A stretch of 46,680 bases of DNA. Origin: Asterionella formosa (lineage: Eukaryota). Within the stretch, counting starts at the first letter, position 1, and every line of letters begins with the position of its first letter. A program made the position numbers and the translations under genes. Where the stretch lies: NCBI GenBank assembly GCA_002256025.1, contig NKIB01014149.1, positions 1-46,680 of the forward strand. Reading direction: 5' to 3'. A model generated the notes under the pieces. That model had not been told where the DNA came from and ran no database searches. It saw only the letters and a program-made list of their open reading frames with translations. Positions 4,199-46,680 of this stretch are shown one piece after another.

Positions 4199-4208
4199 AT
4201 GACCAGAA

Positions 4209-4297
4209 GCAAGTTGCGGTCATTTTGCTTAAATAAACAATTTGATAAGGGGTAACGAAAGCTGACTTTTAGTTTCAGCACAATTACCGCAACTCAC
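4209..4297 (+). mobile_element. ~90-bp TIR mini-element, copy 1 of 4
   Basis: GCAAGTTGCGGTCATTTTGCT...AGCACAATTACCGCAACT; homologous to the copies at 5194, 27031 and 35573. Confidence 0.7.
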
Positions 4298-5193
4298 AGG
4301 TAGCAGATACCATGAATTATGTATGTATTAGGAAAATCTACATCATTCGCGTTGATTGAAACCCTGGTTAGTCAACTGTGTACCAGGTACAATGAAGAAC
4401 CTATCACATGGAGCACTTGTTTGGGATAAGATTCGGATGCCAGGGCAATAGCATCGCAAACGTTGCCGTGAATAAAGAAATACGGCTAAATAAATAGTTT
4501 CTCTCCTCCTCCATCATCCTAATGGAAAACTACCCCTCAGTAGCCAACCGCACAATTTTGACTTCATGAAAAATGACATTAACTGATTGTAACCATTCCT
4601 AGAAGTTGGGATTCACGCACATTAGCCCTCATATCTAAAGTGGTTACCAGTTAAAGTCATTTATTATGAAAAGTTAGTTCATCCAGTGGATCCTTTTGAA
4701 AATGTCATCATCACATAAACAATATCTGTTTGGAGGATATCTTAGAGCATTGGTGGAGGCCTGCTTGACAGAAAAGCAAAGATTGTTGAGGAGAAAGTAA
4801 GCCCATTGTGGCTGGTGTCAGAGTTATCACAAACCTTGGTGCCTTCCTTGTTGATTGTCAAATGTCATTGTGGGAATGTCCTCTAATGATATACATGTCT
4901 TCTTTCATAAACTTCCTGAAGTAGGCACAGTTTGCGATTTAGTGCAACATAAAGACATACAGAAGGCACAAAGAGGAAATAATCTTGACAATGGAGTCTG
5001 TAAATTTATATTTATTAATTTAGATAAGTAATCTAAGATAATTCGAGTATCAGAGCACAATGATGATATTATATATTTTATCACCAACGAATATTTGTGA
5101 TGCAATCATTTTGGCACAAATTAATTTAGTATTTCGAAGCGCGCCCACTGTGTGTTTCTCTCAAATAAATGCATAAGGTTTCCCCTGGTACCA

Positions 5194-5284
5194 GCAAGTT
5201 GCGGTCATTTTGCTTCAATAATCAATTCAATATCGAATAAAGAAAGCTAAATTATGAATTTTTAGCAAAATTACAGCAACTTGC
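5194..5284 (+). mobile_element. ~90-bp TIR mini-element, copy 2 of 4
   Basis: GCAAGTTGCGGTCATTTTGCT...AGCAAAATTACAGCAACTTGC. Confidence 0.7.
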
Positions 5285-8479: not shown

Positions 8480-8665
8480 TGGTACCTGGTACATGGTGCT
8501 GGTACCAGTGTATCTTGGTACCAGGTACCAGTACTCTGGTAGTGTTCTGGGTACCTGGTACTGTGTACCAGGTACTAGGGTACCAGGTACTCTGGTACCT
8601 GGTAGTGTCCTGGGTACCTGGTACTGTGTTCCAGGTACCAGGTACCAGGTACCTGGTACCAGGCA
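8480..8665. repeat. Long GGTACC-rich palindromic tract in a divergent promoter region
   Basis: Dense CCAGGTACCAGGTACCTGGTACC repeats between the starts at 8402(-) and 8780(+). Confidence 0.85.
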
Positions 8666-10555: not shown

Positions 10556-12305
10556 TCAGAGTTCGGGACCAAGATCCTGGGCACCCAGTGACTCCAAAAA
10601 GCTCACAATTTCATGATCCTTTCCATACTGCTTCTTGGCCCACCACAGCGCGGTTCCGCCAACCCCTGAATCGGTACGCTCATTGACGTTGGCGCCCTTC
10701 TCAAACAAGAACTTCACTATCTCCTTATTGCCTGCACGGGCACCTTCATGTAGGGGCGTCCATCCGTTAGCATCCTTGCTATGTACAAGGGAACTGTCCT
10801 TCTCAATCAATTTCTGGAGACCTACTAAATCACCTGTCTGGGCCGCATAATGAGCATTGGTCGACCCAGTCGCAAAGGAACGTTGAACACTTCGTTTCTT
10901 GTTCGGATGCTTCAGTAACCAATTCGCCTCCTCTGCTGATCCAGGAATAATGTAGGAAGGGACTCCACTGACTTGGTCAATTTCATGACCACCGACACCA
11001 CGAGCAGTGGCTTCCTTATACTTTGTGTGTACATCAGTGGCTTCATTTTCCAAAGCCGCCATTTTGGCGTCATGGCGGAGCGAGTGGCCGGTGGCTACGA
11101 ACAAGTATACACTGGTGAGCTCAACACCAGAAGATGCATTTTTTATTCTTCAATCAATCGTGTATCGAAACTTACGTTCAAAATGAATAAAAATATTGGC
11201 CATGAAGCGCCCTTTCAAGGGGAAAGGTCGGCCATGGAGAACTGAGTGGCTTTCATACAAAACCATATCACCAGGCATCATGGTTACGTTGGTGGCTTTT
11301 CCGTCATGCCCGTAGACTTCCAATGGCCAAGGCTCATCCACGTCTTGATCTACATTAATGATGGCCGAGCTCACCAAAGGCAAGCGATCTACATGCGTAG
11401 CCAAGATAGATCCGCCCTTGTACACGCGGATTCCATACAAAGAGCATTGTGTCAATTCCTGGCCAGTCCACTCTTGAATTGTATCCCTCCCTGCATCCCA
11501 AATGCTCTGTTTCAAAGCTGCCCCGCCTCCTCTCAATTTAGTATCTTCTACAGACACCATAAGAGTCATAGATTGCCAATTGTTCGTGTAAGTATTGCCA
11601 GTACCCCAATTCTCGGGCTTTCCATTGTCTCTATTCTTGTCCCAAAATTCTTTGATCAGTTTGAACATTTTCTCGGGTGCTCTAATCTTCTTAAAGCCAA
11701 TATCAGTGTAGTTCTGATCAGATTTAAAGGGAAAATATGCAAAATTGATGGTGAGAAGTGCGTGCTGAACAGCATCACCGGTTCCTGGGGGCAGGAATCA
11801 ACATCAAAGCATCACCAAGCTCAACATCGAATCGTGGAAAGCGTGCTTCCCTACAGGGCACGCACTCTCGCCTCATTCATGTCGTTTCACTTACCGTCAT
11901 GCTCTGTGGCTGTCTGAGGCTCATGGCAATACGATCCCGTTCATTCATGAGGCATCGCTGAGCTCCCTTTGCTCCAAAATGGTCCTTACAACTTTGCAAA
12001 AAATCATCATAGAATTTCTGTCTGTCTCCCAGTGGTTGCACCACCATTCCTTCATACGGGCGAGGGGTTTGAATGCTCGTATCGATGTTATGAGGCAACC
12101 ACGCAAAGTTGGTACTAATACGCTCGTGATGAATGGGAAAGGAAACATCGACGCCGTAGGAAACGTCCGCTTGGCCGTCCCCACGTGTGTTTTCTAGATT
12201 CCCTTTTGCTTGCTCGTTCGTCTTACTTTCCGACAACCAAAAGGCTGTTGCAGGTGATACCACAACTGCCGACACAACGGCAAGGAGTGCTAGGGCGAAT
12301 CGCAT
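10556..12305 (-). CDS. Signal-peptide 2OG-Fe(II) oxygenase-like plus ankyrin-repeat protein, paralog 2; exons 12305-11895, 11713-11176 and 11094-10556
   Basis: Signal peptide MRFALALLAVVSAVVVSPATA; introns 11894-11714 and 11175-11095 (GTAAGT...AG) restore the frame; motifs HVDRLP, HGRPFPLKGRFMANIF and WTPLHEGARAG; ends GPEL. Confidence 0.88.
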
Positions 12306-16545: not shown

Positions 16546-18169
16546 CTAAAGCTCCTTTTCCTCTCGTTCTGGTGGAATATTTTTGGCACCCAGGGACTCC
16601 AGAAATTTGACAACTTCATTTTCCTTGCCATGTCTATTTATTCCCCACCACAAAGCACTTCCACCAACACCACCTTGAGTTCTTGCATTCACATCACTTC
16701 CCTTTTCGACCAAAAATTTAACAATGTCAATATTGCCTGAACGGACCCCTTCATGCAGTGGCGTCCATCCGTTGGCATCCATGGCATTAACAACCTCTTC
16801 ATGTGCACCAACAACTAGTTGGAGTGTGTCCAAATTCTGCTCTGAAGCAGCTCGGTGTGCTTCAGTGGCGCCAGGAGATACTCTTTCGCTCTGCATAATG
16901 GTATAACCATCCGGATTGCGAGCTCTCCAGTTGCTTTCTTCCAGGGAGCCAGGAATTACGTAGGGTGGGAGCTCACTGGTGCCATCTATGATATCACAGC
17001 CAGTGCATCCAATGGGTTCGAAATGGATAAAAACATTTGCCATGAAGCGACCTTTGAGAGGGAATGGGCGGCCTGCGATGCGTTTCGAATGGAATCATGT
17101 CCATTAAATCGAATGTCTATTTCACACGAACGCAATACACAAAGAATTTGACACACAGTACGCACCATGAAGAATTGAATGACTTTCGTACAAAACTAAA
17201 TCTCCAGGCAACATGGTCACATTGTGAGCTTTACCATCGTGCCCAATGACTTCAAGAGGCCATGGCTCATCAAGATCTTGATCGACATTGATAATGGCGG
17301 AACTAACCAAAGGCAAACGGTCGACGTGGGTTGCCAAAACTGCTCCTTCCTTGTAAATTCGAATTCCTGTGCAATAATCATGTCAGTGAATATATTTGAG
17401 CCTCACCGTTTCAGTTCCCGCACCACTCTTACCGTACAAACTACATTCTGCTAACTGCTGACCAGTCCACTCTTGAATTGTATCCCTCGCTGCATTCCAA
17501 ATGTGCTGCTTCAATACAAATCCTCCGTGTTTCAACGACTTGTCTTCCACCCCAATCATTTCCGAGGGAGATTCCCAGTGATTGACATATGTATTTCCAG
17601 CCGGCCAATTTTCTCGCTTAGCCTTGTCCTTGTTGGCCTCCCAAAACTCCAAAAGCAATTTCATTACACTGTCCGGGGCTCTGATTTTGGTAAACCCTAA
17701 TTCGGTGTAATTCTACGGTGTTTGGAGTTTTGGTGAGTGCGTCATTCACATTATCTCTTAATACAAAAACATACATCCAATATACTTCCGTGACCGTGAG
17801 TTCACCGCACAATTACCGATCCGATTTCATCACTGAACTCACCACCATACCTTGAGGCTGACGAAGGCTCATCTGAACACGATCGGCCTCGCTATCATCA
17901 CAGCGTTCTGCCTTGCCCGAGGCTTCATAAAATTGACGGCATCCATCAATAATATTGTTATACATGGTTTGTTTGTCTCCTAATGGCTGAACCACCATGC
18001 CTTCATACTCTGGTGGGGTCGGGAGACTGGGATCGAGATTGTGAGGCAGCCACGCATAGTTTGTCGACACATTTACGTGATGAATAGGATACGAAACGTC
18101 GACACCGTAGTCAATGGCAAAGGCCGATTGACTAAAAAACAACGTGAGAGCGGCAGCAAAGCGCATCAT
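16546..18169 (-). CDS. Signal-peptide 2OG-Fe(II) oxygenase-like plus ankyrin-repeat protein, paralog 3; exons 18169-17843, 17712-17433, 17366-17166 and 17072-16546
   Basis: Signal peptide MMRFAAALTLFFSQSAFA; three GT-AG introns (17842-17713, 17432-17367, 17165-17073) give a continuous ORF collinear with paralog 2; ends EKEL. Confidence 0.88.
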
Positions 18170-18671
18170 GGAGTTGAGATGGAACAGCTCTCAAGGCAGA
18201 TGAGCGATGGCAGAATGACAAGTCGTTGATTTTGCCTTCAGCTATTGTATTTATATCTGGCATGTACTCCAGGAAGGTACCTGGTAGCAGGAACCTGGTA
18301 CTGGTACGAAGTACCAGTATCAGTGATTGTTGTTACTGTTGGGCTAGGGCTAGGGTTAGTGAGGGATCGAATTTGATTGGCATGTGGTACGGAGTACCAT
18401 GTGAATGGGTACAGAACCATACCGGTATGTAGCGTATTATTTAGCTTAAGTGTTATTAAGGTTCCTGCATTTGAACCCCTGGCTCGAGGTAGGGTTAAAA
18501 ACATAATATTGAGTCCGAGTAGTCAAACCAACACTTCTTACGAGAAAAACGTAAATGTATATCGCTAAACGGAGCTTTCACCAATTAACACCCTTTCCAT
18601 ATGCTTAGATACAGTCTTCTGACAAATTGGGGGTATAGGTCAACGCTGTATATCGTCAGGACATAGGATCT

Positions 18672-19028: not shown

Positions 19029-19973
19029 CTATAAATATTTTGATTGGGTTTTTTGTACACCGTTAAGCCCTGTCACTCTGTAGTCTAGTATCTTTTTCGT
19101 GTAGCCGCCAATACAAAAATCATGTCCACTTACAGAGCTGTACTTATTCCCGCTGGACCGCTGCTGCCAGCCCATATCGTAACTAACAGTGAGTTGAGGC
19201 ATATTCAGTACAGACAAGCGATCCGTACCAGTCAGACACTTCCACCACTGAAAATCACGTCCTATGTCAGCCCAGTCTCCTTGTTCATGCACAATGAGTG
19301 TCAGATATATTTCCTCCTGACAAGCCTCTTTCATTGCAAGAGCGGTTGCAGTAGCTTCAGCGTTTCCTACCAGTTCCTCTACTGCACCAAAGTTACCTTG
19401 CGTAGACCAAAATCCAAAGGTAAGTGGAAGATTCATTGCGGAGCAGATGATATCTGCATCTGCTGGTCCCATTCCGGCTTCGTGACAACCCAAAATAAAC
19501 TGTTTGTTGATAGAAAAGTGTTTTGCTTCTATTGCGTTATTTCTTATCTCATCATTTCTGTCTCCATTGCTGTTGCTTCTTGCAGGTTCGAGTTTAGAAA
19601 TCATTTTCTGACAGGTCAAACAAGAGACTTTGAGTTCGCTTGCAAAGCCGTAAATTTTGGTAGAGACAAGAACAATCAACGATTGTATCATTGTTAAAAT
19701 CGGAACAAAGTCAAACACATCCTGTTCCAGAAATGCTTCACATCGCTGTTCAATGGACAGCTTTTGTTGTCTATTTGATGTAAAGTAAGTTACAAAGTCA
19801 CGAAGTGATTGTTTGCAATATTCTTTTACAAATTTATTAACACAACTTTTGCAATACATATCTTCCTGCAGAAATTTTGACAATGTATGATAGTCGATTA
19901 TATGATTCATGTTCAGTTGAGAGCAGTCTGTTTTAATTGGTGACAATGTGATGATTGCTAGTTCTTGAAACAT
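19029..19973 (-). pseudogene. Truncated DDE transposase (Mutator-like/Kolobok type)
   Basis: CKSC...GFASELKVSCLTC zinc motifs, INKQFILG and VSYDMGWQQRSSGNKYSSVSGH..CIGGYTKKILDY (first catalytic Asp region); similarity stops right after, so the rest of the DDE domain is missing. Confidence 0.75.
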
Positions 19974-20034
19974 CGTACGTCGGTGGATTGAAGTTCTTGA
20001 TTTACTAATGAAATAAATGAAAATCGTAAAAACA

Positions 20035-20536
20035 CTAATCACTAACAGATTTAGAACATTTAGAACGTTTGGAAGTTGGTTTGAAACCAGTGTACACTTC
20101 GTTTGGGTCCTTGTTCTTCGCTCAAAAGAGATCGAACCCCCTTCAAACAACAGTCAAGAAGTTGCATCCGAACACCTTTTCCCAATGGACCACTGAAAAC
20201 TCTGATTAGAAACTTGTACAGAAGGTTGCGGGCTCTTGATGCTGTAATGTCTTCATCCTTCAACCTGGTAAGAATGGATTCACCTTCCAGAAACTTCTCC
20301 ACCAACTCTTCGACTTCATCCCATCGGCACTGATATTTAGGGCAGCAAAAATCGCAGCATTCGCAGAAGATGCGATCCTCACATCCCTCCACATAAAACT
20401 CTACAATCAACCGGTCTTGCCAGGTAGGACAACTATCATGACTGTAGTTAAATTCGTCATTGCCGTTGTCATCATTTTGATGTGTAATTTCGCTCATGGT
20501 TGATTGTTGCTTTTTTTGTTTCTTACCGGTAGTCAT
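20035..20536 (-). pseudogene. KolX-like / P2X7 C-terminal-domain-like Cys-rich protein, frameshifted near its C-terminus
   Basis: CECCDFCC...RARNLLYKFLIRVFSGPLGKGVRMQLLDCCLKGVR; the expected terminal 'YTGFK' is in another frame (KDPNEVYTGFKP...TAG at 20035). Confidence 0.6.
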
Positions 20537-26842: not shown

Positions 26843-27030
26843 CGTGGTCAACGAAAGGAAACTATTGCTGTGTGGGCAGAAAGTCGAATACGAGAGTGAC
26901 GCTCTGGAAATGGGAGTTACAGTCTTGATACAATCGTAGATGCTTCGTGATTTAAAAAAGGATCAGGGAGTTGCCACCCGAGGAGGAACAAAAAAAAAGC
27001 AGTCGATTTCTGGGGGAACAAGCAAACCTT

Positions 27031-27121
27031 GCAAGTTGTGGTTATTTAGCCTAAATAAACAATTTAATACAGGATAAAGATAGCTAAACGTTTTAGTTTC
27101 AGCACAATTACCGCAACTTGC
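27031..27121 (+). mobile_element. ~90-bp TIR mini-element, copy 3 of 4
   Basis: GCAAGTTGTGGTTATTTAGCC...AGCACAATTACCGCAACTTGC. Confidence 0.7.
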
Positions 27122-39269: not shown

Positions 39270-39348
39270 TACCTGGTACTCCGCGGAACCACACGTACCG
39301 AAACCTGGAACCAGGTACCAGGTACCTACAGGTAGTACCTGGTACTGT
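39270..39348. repeat. GGTACC-rich tract upstream of Nup93
   Basis: acctggaaccaggtaccaggtacctacaggtagtacctggtact. Confidence 0.75.
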
Positions 39349-39499: not shown

Positions 39500-41869
39500 A
39501 TGGCGCCAATGAAGGCTCACACGGAATTTTCGTCAATGGCAAAGTATTCATTTCCCACATTGGAAGGAGCGTGGAGTTCCCAATCTCTCAGCAACAACGA
39601 TGCCAATCCGCTCGGTTCTATTCATAGGGTTAACATGTCGCGCATTAACCAACTCTCGCATTCTCTTGAATGCCCGCCAAAAAAAGAAAAGAAGAAATTG
39701 GAGAGTCTCGCAGATTTGCTGGAACGTCGACAGAGTGAAATTCTGGAGCAAGTAGTCCAGAATGAACGTAGCGCGACAAGGCAAAGAATTGAACAACTGG
39801 AAGAAGAGCGACTGGCTCAAGATTGGGAGGTAGAGAAAGAAAGGTTCCTTAAAGAGCTTGCCGGCGATCGTGTCTTGGGTGGATCCTCCAAACATCCGGC
39901 ACCTGCATCCCTGTCTCTCGTTCACACCTTGGCTGTTTCAACGGTTCAAACCTCTGACCTCCATGCCATTGCTCAATCTCATTTACAGATAGTTGCTCGA
40001 TGGAACCGTGATCCAGGAATGAATGCAGTCGAAGAATTTTCGCGCATTGCAACTCCGAGCATGTCACCTGCTTATTCGATGGCTTGGAGGCTGCTCGCCG
40101 CGACGGATGGGAAATCGAGTCCCCCTTCCGTCGCTACCGGAGCACTGGCACACCTCTCGCGTCAGTTTCAAAATTACATCATAAACCGAGTGCAAAGCGC
40201 GAGTCTAGCAGGTCAAGATGTGTCTCTTCCCATTACACTTCTGAATGGAATGGCGAACACAGTGGCAACTTTCGTCAAGCTGGAGCACGGCTCGACTGCG
40301 AGTGTGTGGCCCATCATTTACTATTGTAAGTTCCAATCCGATCTTTTTGTTACACATCGACCTAGTTTTTAATATTGATGTTATTTCAACTTACCTTGCC
40401 GAAATCTATGGTTTTTGGCAGGTCTTCGTTGCGGCGATGCAGTTGCTGCTATGAATGTACTCGATTTTGCTGGTACAGAGGTTGATGGCCCCATCTGTCA
40501 AGTTGTCGCCAGCATGGCACAGCTCCAAGGAGCGTCGCTGTGCTTGTGGGATAGATCAATGGATCGCATTGATCGAAAGGCCATTCGGGAAAATAAGCCC
40601 CGGTCGAATGACTTGTATGTAGAGGCATGCTGGACTTTGCTGAGTGCGTCCGAATCGCTTCAAGGTAGGGCAGTGAGGACCATTGAAGATTATCTCTTTG
40701 GAAATCTGTGGTATGCAGTCCAACAATCTAACGCGACAGAGCTACTTGAGGGACTTGGAAAATCTATAATAGATTTTGGACCCAAGTATTTTGACGAAAA
40801 CGAAGAATCAAGCGGCTGGTCGTATGCCCTGCCGCTTCTCCTTACACAGCAATATCAAACCGCTTTGACCCATTTGGCCAACGTTGGTAATTCACTTGGC
40901 CTTTTGCAAGCAACTCACTTGGCAATGGCAATGAGAGAAATTCAAGACTTGGGTAATGTCGCCTTTGGCGAGCAACCTATGTTGACTACTTTGCTTGTTG
41001 AATTCAGCCGTCAGATGCAAATTGCGGATGCCCCTGCTGCTTTGGAATACCTTGTTCGTATTCCAAATCCAGACCGTCGGCGTAGCGAGACTGCCCGTCT
41101 TCTTGTGGAAACTCGCCAATTTGAGGCGCTGGCTGGTCAGCTTTCTCGTGACGGTATGCGGCAGGGAATGGATTCCGCGCTGGATCAGCACTTCAGCTCC
41201 TCTGAGATCACTGATATTCTTGAAGAAGCGGCGGATTTAGCCATTAGCAAAAATAATCCACGTGATGCAATGGAATTGTTGAACCTGGCAGAGCGATACG
41301 ATTTGCTACTCCAGCTCCTCAATCAAAAGCTTGCTACTCATGTCAACCAATCCGCGACATCCGAAATGCGTCAATCCTGGAAGGTTACAGCTCAACAATT
41401 CCACTCGTGGCACTTGGAAGGGCCGAGAACTCACGTCATGGATATCTTAATGAAGCAAAAGCAGACTTCTTTAGTTCAGACCTCTCGGATCATCCTGAAA
41501 CTCTTTGATTTTTTCGATGCCCTAGCAATGCGTGACTTTCAGCAAGCATGCAACATTGTCGACTCCATTGGTGTTCTGCCTTCTAGTAAATCTGACTTGC
41601 AAGTCAAGGAGCGCGAATACCATTCCTTGGACCCGCTTGTAAGGGAAATCTTCCCCGCGGTTCTCTTGGGCGCAATGAGCGCACTTTACCAACAGCATGA
41701 GAGTCTCAAACACAATTGTTTCACGGTCAATAAGGGAACGGCAATGCAACGATTGGCGGAGTTGCGAGATCGATCGTGCGCATTGATGTCATTTAGCGGC
41801 AGCCTGAACATGATCAATTCTAGTGAACAGTTGGCTATGATGGCCAGAATGGAAGCCTCCATGGTGTAG
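39500..41869 (+). CDS. NUP93: Nucleoporin Nup93/Nic96; exons 39500-40325 and 40422-41869
   Basis: Intron 40326-40421 (GTAAGT...GCAG) restores WPIIYYCLRCG; also DWEVEKERFL, TIEDYLF and LLLTQQY, typical of the Nic96 family. Confidence 0.8.
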
Positions 41870-42056
41870 ACCAAGAGATTCAATGTTTTTAGGGCAAGAG
41901 AAAGGGAACCAAAGTAGCACCAGTCAATACTGATAGTCTGATTCCCATCCAATTTTTTCTGAATACTATGGTCTATTACAGCTGCATTTCGTATATGTTT
42001 CTCAAGAACCCATCATCAGTACATCATTGGAATATATAAATGAATATTATGTTTAT

Positions 42057-42217
42057 GGGGAATAGCTTAGTTGGTAAGCTCACCTTCTGAGGTGGCAAGT
42101 TCGATTCCCGCATTCTCCACCTGCTTTGTTTATGTAGTCTCTAGGTTCTGGGGAGCAGACAACAAGCAGGTCTAAAGCCCTCAGGGGGGGGGCAAGTGCG
42201 ACTTCACAACCTCCACA
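42057..42217 (+). mobile_element. tRNA-Ala-derived structured SINE-like element, copy 1
   Basis: GGGGAAT/ATTCTCC-A acceptor-like stem with G3:U wobble; A box TAGCTTAGTTGG and B box GTTCGATTCC; no 7-nt anticodon loop; ~100-nt tail shared with copy 2. Confidence 0.7.
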
Positions 42218-42594
42218 ATTGTCAAGTTCTTTACAAATAGCATGATGCTTGAGAATTTCCGCTTTGTCTGGACCGAAGTTGCCCATATCCACATTCTCCA
42301 GTTTGTTTCCTTCCACACAAGCCACATTTTTATTCATCCTGATACAAAAAGTAGAAGTGGTGTGAGCTCCACTGCCCAGTTGTTACTGCTAAGACTCCCA
42401 TAGATGACGATGCATACCACCCAGAGCTCTATGACTCCCCATTATTAGACTAGAGAGAATCATCCAAATATTGAGGGATGGTTGGAAGTTGCAATTGGTC
42501 AATTACCTCAGGAAGATTCGAGATTAACTAGGTTACACAACTCAAGTATTGTCCAGATATGCAATGGCACATACCCAAAGAAGGACATTTTCTA

Positions 42595-43446
42595 GCAATT
42601 CCCGCTCCAGCTATTGTCTTGTCATTCGGGTACTTCTAAGTAATTTTTAGGCTCTAAGTAATTTCTTAAGTAATTATTATTTAAGGGCAATATGGGGCAC
42701 ATCGAATTTTTCGGCAATAAAATTGCCGATTTTAGCATGACAACCAGAATAACGGTAATATGCATAGAGATGGTACAACAAGCGTAAAACACACAAGAAT
42801 GATTGTAACATGCAACATCAATGAAAATTGAACATGATGTTTGGAGCAACCAAAGTATGAAATGCGGTGTAATAAGTAGCATCAAATGAGAAATAGAAAG
42901 AAATTTGGGTTAGAAATGAAATAAAAAATAAGAGTTCCAATGGAGACACATGCATTAGAAGACAAGCAATCCAACAATCAACCGCATCCGTTAGGCAAAG
43001 AATCGCTACTGGCATCATCGCGGAACTGATTTCGCTTCAAACCGGTCATGATGGACGACGATTGGCATGGTGAAAGGTGAATTGCCGGAGTCCACTTTTC
43101 AGGAGACGAACAAAAACGAGGTGAATTCTAGATATAAATTAGAATCTGAATAGTATATAAAATGGTTTCCTTAAGTAGACCCCTTGCCGATTTCGGCAAT
43201 CCCAGGGCTGGAAAACCGAGGGGCAATTGGTGTCTGTTGTCTTGCCAAAATGCGAACATGTGAGATAAACAAAATATATTTTAATGATGGGCAATATCTG
43301 ACCTTTGGCAATTTTCGAGGTGAAGATAGGAAATATACAAAATATATTTTACATGATGAGCAATAGTAGGCTAAAATTGACATTTATGCTAAATTTTTGG
43401 GCAGTAGGTAAGCGAATGACGCGACAATAGCTAGAGCGGGAATTGC
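42595..43446. mobile_element. ~850-bp non-autonomous TIR element (MITE-like)
   Basis: Left GCAATTCCCGCTCCAGCTATTGTCTTGTCATTCG and right CGAATGACGCGACAATAGCTAGAGCGGGAATTGC form a 34-bp TIR with 3 mismatches; non-coding interior. Confidence 0.75.
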
Positions 43447-43451
43447 CTCAA

Positions 43452-43631
43452 CAATACCCTTCTTGGCGGCTGCTTGCCTTCTTGTATACATGTGTACTCG
43501 ACTGGGATGGCACTCGTAGGGTGACCTTCTTGCAGCGCCGGGGGCACCACTTGTATGGTCAACCTACTTGCGCCACCCAGCCTCGAACACATGTATACTC
43601 GCAGGCAAGAGACCACCTTGGGCGTGTATTG
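43452..43631. mobile_element. ~180-bp foldback/hairpin MITE-like element
   Basis: The left arm CAATACCC...CTTGCC...GTATACATGTGT...GTAGGGTGACC is imperfectly complementary to the right arm GGTCAACCTAC...ACACATGTATAC...GGCAAG...GTATTG. Confidence 0.6.
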
Positions 43632-43922
43632 CCTTCAGCAATACAGAGGGTTATTGAATATTTGAAGGAATTCTCAAAAGGTCATATTACCATCAATCCT
43701 GGATACCAAGACTGGACTACAGTAGGAGATATCGGCGCTGCAAGAAGGTCACCCTACTTGCGCCACCCAGCCTCGAACACATGTATACTCGCAGGCAAGA
43801 GACCACCTCGGGCGTGTATTGCCTTCAGCAATACAGAGGGTTATTGAATATTTGAAGAAATTCTCAAAAGGTCATATTACCATCGATCCTGGATACCAAG
43901 ACTGGACTACAGTAGAAGATAT
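43563..43922 (+). repeat. Near-identical ~170-bp direct duplication (period 190 bp)
   Basis: 43563-43732 and 43753-43922 differ at only about 4 positions. Confidence 0.9.
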
Positions 43923-44759
43923 ACCTTTGATAGACCGGAGCGAACTTTACCCAGATGCACATGAGGAATTACCATAAAACATGCATACACCAAAAGGTAG
44001 ATCTGTACAATTCAGGTGTTGTATGGATGCAGATGATGCCAAGCAAAAACAAGATTGTCAGTAACAGGAGTTATATTGTTCCTGAATAAAACTCCTATAA
44101 AATGGATATAGAAATGACAAAGATGCCAAATCTTCAACTCATGGATTGGAGGTGGTGGCAGCACAACTCTTGTTGGAGAAATTCTTTTAGGAGAAATCCT
44201 GGTATTCAAATTACCTACAATATTATGAATATTGTCTGCGTACAAACAAGGTGACATTTGTATGTTCCAGGGATTAACAATATATATATATATATAGAAT
44301 CAAATGAATCAAAAAGAATATCAAGATCAGAATTCGAAAACAATCTGCACCAGAAGTAAAACACATAACACTATGAATTTTTTAGGAATGATCACAATCA
44401 ATCTCTGTGACACTGATGTTCGTATCTACAGCCTATTTGGTCCCTGACACATCCTTGCACGATACAAAAAAGCAATAGAAGGCTTCAGGACGCAATTTTA
44501 ACAGTTTTCATAGAATTATCCGGCCAGGAACCGCCCCAACACTAGAAACAACTTCAGGCGGACTGTGGAGAGTCCGAAGTCAAGAATTGAGAGTCCCAGA
44601 ACATACAGAGTCTGAAGAAGTCGCAAAAGGCACAAAATGTGTGGCAAAGGAAGGTTTACTAAGAAGGCTCAAGTCAAGGGCAAGTTCTAAGCCAAGGGAG
44701 AGAGCAATAAGCTTCTCATACCAGGAACAAGAAGTCTATCAATGACTACAACTACTTTC

Positions 44760-46010
44760 TCTGATCGGCGAAGCGGACATCTGATTATGAAACTACCACA
44801 GAGTACCTGATCAACTAAATCCTAAAGTATTCGACTATGGCAAAAACATAGGAACTGCGCTCAAGTATTTGAACCAATGATCACATCGGCATGGAAGCCA
44901 AGCAAGAATGCAGGTCAGTCTTGCAACTACAGATGAAGATTGTGCTGCAGAGAATCGGCAATATGAGATTGAATCAAAGGCCAACTATGAAACCTATAGC
45001 AAAATGGTACAGACCTACGAAAACAATAATACCAAGCCATATGTGTTGCTCTGAGAGAGACACAACAAGGCCATAAAAGTAAGATCAAAGCAAGATTGGA
45101 TTACATTAAAATCAAGGATAACCCAATAACATTGCTTATTGCAATTAAAGAACATGCACTAAATTATCAGGAGAATTGATATTCAACGTCAATCAATTTA
45201 GATACAATGAGAATGCTTCTTACTACAAAGCAGAGGGAAGGAGAATGTCTACAAGATTACACAAAGAGGTTTTGTGTGGCACAAGATGTGCTCAAGTCAC
45301 ACATTGGAGGACCTATAATCCTAAAAAAGTTTGTCAATGCCATAGATGGATACAATTAGATGGATACCAAACTGCAAGATAGATTTTGAGAACAGGCTTT
45401 CAGTCAATTCCTTGCCTACTTATAACTTGACAACACAGATAAGGCAAAATACAAATCAATTCTGACCGCGCTTAGCACACAACAATCGCTCAGAAGTATC
45501 AATACCCGAAGAGTATCACCAAGTCAAACAATGTTCTCAGTAATCCTAGGTTTGATGTAGCAACTAAGCCCAGCGGTCTTAAGAATCCAGGGGATCATAA
45601 TAAAGATAGGGATCAAAAGAAAATTCGGAAGGATGTTTATTCAAGCAATTGGATTAAAATGATCCATGCGTTGCAAATCGCACTGTTAATGGAAAACAGA
45701 CACAGTTACTTTGCTCATTGACGATTTAAAATCAATTCACAAGGATAGCAAAGTGAAAAATCAATTTTTGGAATGGCTCAAAAAGAAATACACTTCTGAC
45801 GAAATTTGTGAGTCAAGGTCATGTGTGGAAATAAGCATGATTACTTGGCGACAAAACTAGATTACCCTATTCCAGGAGTGTTGAGAGTGGACTTGACAAA
45901 ATATGTGAAATCAATGATTGACAATAGCCCAGATATATTTGAAGGTGTCAAAAAATTTCCATGGAGAGACAAACTGTTCACAGTTGATACAAAATCGAAG
46001 AATTATGAGT
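44760..46010 (+). pseudogene. Second decayed Copia-type element: gag-like remnant joined to an RT fragment
   Basis: Gag-like DYETTTEYLIN, NPITLLIAIKEHALNYQE and DKAKYKSILTALSTQQSL; then RT-like DPCVANRTVNGK, IDDLKS and GNKHDYLATKLDYPIPGVLRVDLTKYVKSM; multiple stops. Confidence 0.6.
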
Positions 46011-46499
46011 ATAAGAACAAAGCCTTCATCAATTTGGACTTCTTATATCATTTTGAATGTAAAAGCCGAAGCTGACAGTTTCCTTTCAATCACCCAGCAA
46101 TTCGCTGATCCTTCACTTGCATCGAAAGGAGCATTGAGACAGAGATGGTGCTTCTGAAGCACTCCTGAAATGAACAGAATCACGATGAAAGTTGAGAAAT
46201 AACTCACAGGAAATTTTTTGTTACGTCCAAGAAAGAGGCAGGACCTACATGCTATGGCGTGAAACAATTTCTTTTCCTTAAACATAGCTCCTTATTTATG
46301 ATTGTGACCATTCACTGTTCGGCTGGAGATTAGCGAAATATTGAGAAAATAGTTTCTGCACATCATTGTAAAGTATAAGAAATAACTTGGAGGTATTATT
46401 ATTGTGGATGTCAATAAAAAGCGTCAAATCAGTGATGATTTCCCGGTATAAAAATATACAGTATATTTATAATATGCTGTTGTTAAAGGACTCGGTATT

Positions 46500-46664
46500 T
46501 GTGGAGGTTGTGAAGTCGCACGGGGCCCCCCAGAGGGCCTTAGACCTGCTTGTTGTCTGCCTCACCACCCGGAATCCAAGGGACTACATAAACAAAGCAG
46601 GTGGAGAATGCGGGAATCGAGCCCGCCACCTCGGAAGGTGAGCCAACCAACTAAGCTATTCCCC
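46500..46664 (-). mobile_element. tRNA-Ala-derived structured SINE-like element, copy 2 (inverted relative to copy 1)
   Basis: Reverse complement reads GGGGAATAGCTTAGTTGGTTGGCTCACCTTCCGAGGTGGCGGGCTCGATTCCCGCATTCTCCACCTGC...GTGCGACTTCACAACCTCCACA. Confidence 0.7.
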
Positions 46665-46680
46665 TAGATGCGCCAGTAGA

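Follow-up and report, generated by a model that had tools for sequence, protein, structure and literature searches.

A candidate tRNA-derived SINE family with a tRNA-Ala-like head in the diatom Asterionella formosa

The stretch of Asterionella formosa DNA analysed here, contig NKIB01014149.1 of assembly GCA_002256025.1 (46,680 nucleotides (nt), referred to as the window), carries towards its right-hand end two inverted copies of a short repeat that opens with a tRNA-Ala-like head. We propose that they are two independent, old insertions of a dispersed, decaying, non-coding family, which is probably best read as a tRNA-derived short interspersed element (SINE). The repeat is multi-copy and dispersed, has a sharp 5′ end at the position of tRNA +1, decays from copy to copy and is present in RNA contigs; we regard its status as a dispersed repeat as very likely. 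Specifically, it has three of the properties by which a SINE is recognised: 1) it is short (187–220 nt), non-coding and dispersed, as seen in a pile-up of contigs, 29 translated copies and nine different 3′ flanks; 2) its 5′ head is related to tRNA, with a full-length alignment to the Rfam tRNA model and A- and B-box-like motifs read from the sequence; and, 3) it starts at tRNA +1 in both window copies, in one RNA contig and in four translated copies.

Copies, dispersal and boundaries

Copy 1 (core 42057–42243 on the forward strand, 187 nt) and copy 2 (core 46664–46474 on the reverse strand, 191 nt) are homologous and 86% identical, with 159 of 185 aligned positions the same, 15 transitions, 11 transversions and 8 gap columns; blastn gave 84.5% over 193 columns. 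A repeat search of the window returned two pairs of inverted arms, 42057–42145 with 46576–46664 (89 nt, 91%) and 42186–42243 with 46474–46531 (58 nt, 81%). The first 19 nt are identical between the copies, as is a 23-nt stretch further downstream (42196–42218 and 46521–46499). At 16 of the 26 substituted positions copy 1 has A or T and copy 2 has G or C, and the CpG count is 3 in copy 1 and 8 in copy 2. On these substitution, A/T-bias and CpG counts both copies are old and diverged, with copy 1 the more decayed. A third copy was not found in the 46.7-kilobase (kb) window by blastn using each copy with its flanks as query.

The pair lies where the initial annotation had reported homologous inverted copies, at 42057–42217 (+) and 46500–46664 (−). 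That annotation had described a unit of about 160 nt; both copies are real, but homology continues for about 26 nt beyond the CCACA at which it ended the unit. The homology of copies 1 and 2 reaches an AGCAT at 42243 and 46474, and other copies, known as translations, extend the unit by a further 27–30 nt or so, from which we judge its length to be about 215–220 nt. The majority letters of the other copies at 46496 and 46498 match copy 1 at these positions.

Evidence for dispersal comes from Logan contigs of two DNA runs (X1 and X2) and two RNA runs, aligned to 41500–46680 at 80% likeness; the stretch is present in runs from an 'algae metagenome' and from metagenomes of freshwater or lakes. 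Contig depth on unique parts was 779–1164 in X1 and about 150 in X2, and the summed depth in the two bins holding the heads was 54,130 and 388,497 in X1 and 5,742 and 37,129 in X2. The element is thus found at about 50–400 times single-copy depth, a summed value that is not a copy number and is taken only as tens to hundreds of copies. At 46522 the contigs number 75 (X1) and 34 (X2), and at 42192 they number 33 and 13. One contig joins 42202 to 46539, partly matching each copy, and its X1 depth of 994 equals that of single-copy sequence.

The bin 42192–42364 was also observed to have a summed X1 depth of 95,231, greater than the 54,130 of the bin with most of copy 1, and to hold only some 50–80 nt of the element. 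The excess would follow if the 3′ part occurred more often than the decayed copy 1 head, or if a different repeat lay directly next to it.

Further copies were recognised through translation. The antisense strand of the element contains an open frame of about 55 codons from an ATG (46474–46638 (+) and 42083–42243 (−)), and a protein search with this frame returned 13 proteins at E < 1e-6 and one at E 0.89 (all 14 candidates scored). A profile search then scored 8000 candidates and gave 29 predicted proteins with E no higher than 0.1, all from jgi or ena metagenome assemblies, 56–91% identical to copy 2, and without exception labelled nothing but 'hypothetical protein'. These entries are a spurious family of gene calls produced by the repeat. 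The initial annotation would have been undone had only its two copies existed and no transcript been found, and the contig pile-up and the 29 translated copies demonstrate that there are more.

Both boundaries were examined in an alignment of 24 of the 29 translated copies with the two window copies. On the 3′ side, all nine proteins that read past AGCAT keep KLLSKFYST-like residues and are then mutually unrelated, and therefore these nine copies sit at different places; the other 15 of the 24 start at or inside the element and are uninformative on this boundary. Residues past the common 3′ part are rich in Asn, Lys and Ile, corresponding to T/A-rich sequence on the element strand. On the 5′ side, divergence is immediate upstream of GGGG in copies 1 and 2, in one RNA contig (loose end 46662) and in the translations P0026, P0027/P0014, P0035 and P0040. 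A 5′ end at tRNA +1 is the pattern of retroposed RNA polymerase III (Pol III) transcripts.

Decay is visible throughout the family. P0021, P0023, P0024 and P0039 are frameshifted, P0018 has an internal deletion, and P0020 and P0022 have lost the head. Copies truncated at the 5′ end or rearranged also occur, among them contigs in which the hairpin is shortened or nothing but the 3′ part is left (loose ends 46541 and 46579). One translation, P0025 (ena), matches 46435–46628, including the private flank of copy 2 together with the frameshifted element. It represents the copy 2 locus in another assembly, and a related strain or species therefore has this insertion as well.

Head, body and 3′ end

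The head is 63 nt long and in each copy begins exactly at position 1 of the element. Both heads have a 7-base-pair (bp) acceptor stem with a G3:U70 pair; the second strand of this stem closes the head on its 3′ side and A73 follows it. The anticodon arm is replaced by a 5-bp stem with a 4-nt loop, three anticodon-loop bases have been lost, the variable loop is lacking and there are no single-stranded linkers. The T arm of copy 2 (GCGGG-CTCGATT-CCCGC) is perfect, and its substitute for the anticodon arm reads CACCT-TCCG-AGGTG. The naming of the box-like motifs uses what we take to be the consensus of the A and B boxes.

The Rfam tRNA model aligns end to end (positions 1–71) with 42057–42119 at 20.3 bits (E 0.052 in a 221-nt search; gathering score 29), with 5 positions standing for the 13 of the anticodon arm. 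This alignment and the sequence itself bear out the acceptor stem with G3:U, the A box, the T arm and the reduced anticodon arm set out in the initial annotation. For copy 2 the best hit in the clan was transfer-messenger RNA (tmRNA), at 10.9 bits and covering the acceptor stem and T arm only. A tmRNA was rejected on that score, set against a gathering score of 47, and on the replacement of 314 model positions by 16; the weak hit arises because the G3:U70 acceptor stem and the T arm are common to both. A tRNA gene was likewise rejected, as ARAGORN made no tRNA call in the whole window, the Rfam score is below the gathering score, and a 4-nt loop stands instead of a 7-nt anticodon loop. The head is related to tRNA and Ala-like in its acceptor stem, without being a tRNA gene.

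Folding gives a divided picture. The 63-nt heads fold better than shuffled sequences: their z values are −2.28 and −2.77, and of 200 shuffles 3 and 4, respectively, were equally good. No such excess is seen for the bodies, at z −0.91 and +0.47, or for the whole units, at z −1.40 and −0.60, and the earlier description of the repeat as highly structured is consequently correct for the heads and not for the rest. The minimum-energy fold of the head is not a cloverleaf but a rod in which the acceptor stem is prolonged. Across the translated copies, the best conserved columns are those of the long-hairpin stem (antisense DLLVV and NKAGGE), the best conserved part of all, and of the junction between head and body, and not those of the head. 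Such a pattern is consistent with a CpG-rich head that decays neutrally, or with a body that is constrained while the family propagates. In P0017 and P0019, antisense pairs of Arg with Cys might represent an A-U replacement in the T stem; because the changes are CpG transitions and the mismatch occurs alone in other copies, no conclusion was drawn from them.

At the 3′ end, copy 2 has five consecutive T on the element strand (46454–46450), at the point where the common sequence of the other copies stops, and the unit may end at or close to a T-run of the Pol III type. The order of the unit would then be a tRNA-Ala-like head, a body made up of the long hairpin, the G+C hairpin and the invariant 23-mer, and a short A/T-rich end.

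Transcripts and competing explanations

In a poly-A metatranscriptome (X15) and a cDNA metatranscriptome (X16), contigs cover the element, with a depth of about 1700 at 46517–46680. The single-copy stretch 43922–44094 has an RNA depth of 0 in both runs, and gross carry-over of DNA is therefore unlikely; the very high-copy repeats between the two copies have proportionally far less RNA. Apart from this control stretch, gaps in RNA cover were not taken as a sign of silence, nor were small word shares of runs taken as a sign of habitat. One RNA contig, an exact match to the window and part of the Nup93 transcript itself, extends from the neighbouring Nup93 gene (41500) through the head of copy 1 to 42128 and ends where the X2 DNA contig also ends, that is, at the repeat break. 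A second window-identical RNA contig covers 42216–42411, such that RNA enters copy 1 and resumes after it. Copy 1 thus probably lies in the 3′ untranslated region of Nup93 or in read-through from it.

Reading the family as a tRNA-derived SINE implies the following mechanism. A few source copies would be transcribed by Pol III from the internal promoter in the head, and an autonomous retroelement would supply the enzyme for reverse transcription and insertion of the RNA. As the element lacks poly-A, that enzyme may recognise the conserved 3′ body. Inserted copies would then decay neutrally. The proposal in the initial annotation of a non-decoding, tRNA-derived mobile RNA survives in the form of a repeated, tRNA-Ala-like, non-decoding family of SINE type with more than two copies.

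Several observations weigh against this reading. The spacing from A to B box is about 10 nt shorter than in tRNA, and the 3′ end is known from translated copies only. A poly-A or simple-repeat tail is absent from both window copies, and a target-site duplication (TSD) was not found at either, in agreement with the initial annotation, which had seen neither: the best candidate, 8 nt with one mismatch, was equalled by 165 of 300 shuffles, in a search weakened by the 16 nt of upstream flank that copy 2 has within the window and by the uncertainty of the exact 3′ end. Nine open frames (eight between the copies and one overlapping the 3′ flank of copy 1) gave no Pfam match above the cut-off. Exact-pattern scans of genome contigs and of viral contigs gave 0 DNA copies, and a scan of metagenome contigs gave one match (L001), a chance occurrence in a bacterial coding region. 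Lastly, the RNA contigs of the element continue into unrelated sequence on both sides, for 255 nt at 46662 and 70 nt at 46498, and thus show embedded or read-through RNA and not a discrete Pol III product. A guess at a copia-like fragment at 45812–46075, between the copies, was not confirmed by Pfam.

One alternative is that the repeats form a family of tRNA mimics, acting as processing modules in the manner of mascRNA or giving rise to small RNAs, with dispersal a secondary matter. RNase P and RNase Z would excise the 63-nt head from Pol II or Pol III transcripts and CCA would be added, and G3:U70 with A73 might permit charging by alanyl-tRNA synthetase (AlaRS). The head has the features listed for mascRNA: besides the acceptor stem and the T stem-loop, its D arm is reduced, a compact loop takes the place of the anticodon loop and linkers are missing (PMC11693755). 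It folds better than shuffles, and copy 1 is sense-oriented in the 3′ region of the Nup93 transcript. Against this, the head decays freely, with two A.C mismatches in the T stem of copy 1, changes in the acceptor stem and D arm elsewhere and some copies without a head; the body and not the head is best conserved, the poly-A RNA contig crosses the head of copy 1 uncut, and the minimum-energy fold is the rod. mascRNA itself is described as not aminoacylated (PMC11693755). We consider this explanation rather unlikely. Still further down the scale, and in our view quite improbable, is the specific case in which the head would be a working tRNA-Ala mimic, a 63-nt RNA cut out by RNase P and RNase Z, CCA-tailed and possibly alanylated. 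The last step is conceivable in that AlaRS recognises its tRNA by G3:U70 and A73, not by the anticodon. If it were true, the genome would hold dispersed non-decoding alanine acceptors, or a mobile 3′-end-processing signal for host mRNAs.

The unit could instead be the terminal part of a larger mobile element, such as a solo long terminal repeat (LTR), a Cassandra-like LTR of the terminal-repeat retrotransposon in miniature (TRIM) type with a Pol III cassette, or one end of some other transposon. In favour of this are the TG...CA reading of copy 1, the lack of a poly-A tail and of a TSD of SINE type, and the abundance of very high-copy repeats between the copies. Nevertheless, the flanks differ immediately, in nine copies on the 3′ side and in at least seven on the 5′ side, and an LTR has no reason to begin at tRNA +1. 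Copy 2 is preceded by A and not T, leaving TG...CA to copy 1 only, the two copies are inverted with no direct partner for either in the window, and no 5-bp duplication is present, all of which speaks against the LTR or TRIM alternative raised in the initial annotation; we regard an origin of this kind as unlikely. A miniature inverted-repeat transposable element was also tried as a candidate and rejected, given that the unit ends are not complementary, the inverted repeats are only internal hairpins and there is no TSD. A local inverted duplication, a 4.6-kb composite unit of which the copies are the two ends, or a pair of duplicated tRNA pseudogenes would account for the inverted orientation, with heads outward and 4.4 kb apart. 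Yet the sequence in common stops at the family's own boundaries and the flanks beyond are unrelated, the copies have diverged by 14%, and many other copies are solitary. Moreover, the outer flanks have no common duplication, interior bins depart from the depth of the element by up to 1000-fold, and the copy 2 locus occurs alone, with its own flank, in the other assembly (P0025). The earlier suggestion that the pair might be the ends of one 4.6-kb unit therefore fails, the other copies being single with unrelated flanks and the interior consisting of other repeats at different depth, and local duplication in any of these forms is very improbable indeed. The tRNA-derived SINE is the reading that we prefer.

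It is plausible that the family is undescribed. No such family was found in the papers that a search on tRNA-derived SINEs of diatoms returned. To our knowledge, SINEs were for a long time considered missing from most unicellular eukaryotes. Once characterised, the family would be a usable example of a SINE in which the tRNA-Ala-like head is clear, the 5′ end is defined and copies number about a hundred or more. It would be of value for the repeat annotation of algal genomes and as a possible marker system, and also for the cleaning of databases, since public metagenomes already list its antisense frame as a 'hypothetical protein'.

Genomic setting and comparison with known systems

The window is gene-dense eukaryotic nuclear DNA with genes for Nup93/Nic96, an HMG-box protein, an ankyrin protein and a pseudouridine synthase, and further genes for condensin Cnd1, CbiX, TauD, a deaminase and a Mutator-like transposase. 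Among named relatives, the one closest to Nup93 comes from the diatom Grammatophora oceanica (36% identity), in keeping with a diatom host. The features of the two copies and of the gene upstream of copy 1 are collected in Table 1.

Table 1. Coordinates of the repeat copies, their parts and the adjacent gene in the window.
Feature	Position	Strand	Basis or remark
Copy 1 core	42057..42243	+	Sequence, repeat search, blastn, substitution count
Copy 2 core	46474..46664	−	Sequence, repeat search, blastn
Copy 1 tRNA-related head	42057..42119	+	Rfam tRNA full-length alignment; sequence
Copy 2 tRNA-related head	46602..46664	−	Sequence, Rfam clan hit, folding
Copy 1 acceptor stem, 5′ strand	42057–42063	+	
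Copy 1 A-box-like motif	42063–42074	+	Read from sequence
Copy 1 D arm, perfect	42065–42079	+	
Copy 1 hairpin in place of anticodon arm (5 bp, TCTG loop)	42081–42094	+	
Copy 1 T arm, two A.C mismatches	42095–42111	+	
Copy 1 B-box-like motif	42098–42108	+	Read from sequence
Copy 1 acceptor stem, 3′ strand (G3:U70)	42112–42118	+	
Copy 1 A73	42119	+	
Copy 1 long hairpin (ACCTGCTT...AAGCAGGT)	42119..42171	+	Minimum-energy folds
Copy 1 G+C hairpin and identical stretch	42177..42218 (hairpin 42177–42193; identical 23 nt 42196–42218)	+	Copy alignment, folding
Copy 1 probable decayed 3′ tail	42244..42270	+	Antisense ...RKFSSIM compared with family KLLSKFYST; tentative
Copy 2 probable decayed 3′ tail	46447..46473	−	Tentative; five T on element strand at 46454–46450
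Nup93/Nic96, last long open frame	40379..41869	+	Open frame, protein relatives; ends 188 nt upstream of copy 1

Other repeats were noted in the window. The interval 42538–43921 consists of extremely high-copy repeats (X1 summed depth 0.28–3.7 million, compared with about 1000 for single copy), which include a 190-nt tandem duplication (43557–43732 and 43747–43922, 97%); no Pfam domain was found in the open frames of this interval. The Mutator-like transposase domain (PF20700, E 2.3e-18) is in an open frame at 19029–20153 (−). A 61-nt direct repeat occurs three times (4208–4268, 5193–5253 and 27030–27090; 75–82% alike) and is possibly another small dispersed element. An 83-nt direct repeat links 11433–11515 and 17432–17514 (82% alike, 6 kb apart), and palindromic units like GGTACC/CCAGGTAC are present at three places (8536–8663, 18261–18308 and 39294–39341).

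Among known systems, the Cassandra TRIM is an element whose LTRs bear a 5S Pol III cassette. It is like the diatom repeat in having a Pol III-type promoter inside a mobile repeat, and unlike it in that the diatom repeat has no direct pair of LTRs, no primer-binding site or polypurine tract, no consistent TG...CA ends and no 5-bp TSD. The likeness to tmRNA is confined to the G3:U70 acceptor stem and the T arm, the diatom repeat having no mRNA-like part and no pseudoknots and lying in a eukaryotic nuclear setting.

The tRNA-like RNAs mascRNA and menRNA have the same acceptor stem and T arm, a compact loop for the anticodon loop and no linkers (PMC11693755), and the GUT15 RNA of Arabidopsis is likewise a tRNA mimic. 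RNase P and RNase Z recognise mascRNA and menRNA, neither of which is aminoacylated (PMC11693755). All three are single conserved loci at defined places in Pol II transcripts, in contrast to a decaying multi-copy family with a conserved 3′ body.

The closest comparison by host is with the SINEs listed for other diatoms, which in the accessible text of the sources are so far only putative classes from annotation pipelines (PMC5859163; PMC7466962). Phatr3 of Phaeodactylum tricornutum is given 13 'putative SINE' copies amounting to 1,454 bp (PMC5859163), SINEs were found in Cyclotella cryptica v2 and their role in diatoms is called poorly understood (PMC7466962), and a further source, in its accessible part, mentions only the GC content of SINEs (PMC12803021). 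The putative SINEs of Phatr3 and C. cryptica v2 belong to the same host group and have the same class label, and they are described in these texts without sequences, tRNA origin or structure, which makes the comparison one of class label only.

The rodent ID elements and BC1 RNA, of tRNA-Ala origin, provide the nearest parallel to a tRNA-derived SINE of the kind that we propose. The diatom element differs from them in its algal host, in having no A-rich tail and instead a conserved body of about 150 nt with hairpins, and in its loss of three anticodon-loop bases and the linkers. In common with them, it is a short, dispersed, non-coding repeat that starts from +1 of a tRNA-Ala-related head with A and B boxes. 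The tRNA-Ala domain of BC1 reportedly became an extended stem-loop, according to work by Rozhdestvensky and colleagues in 2001, and the head of the diatom element similarly favours an extended stem-loop over the cloverleaf.

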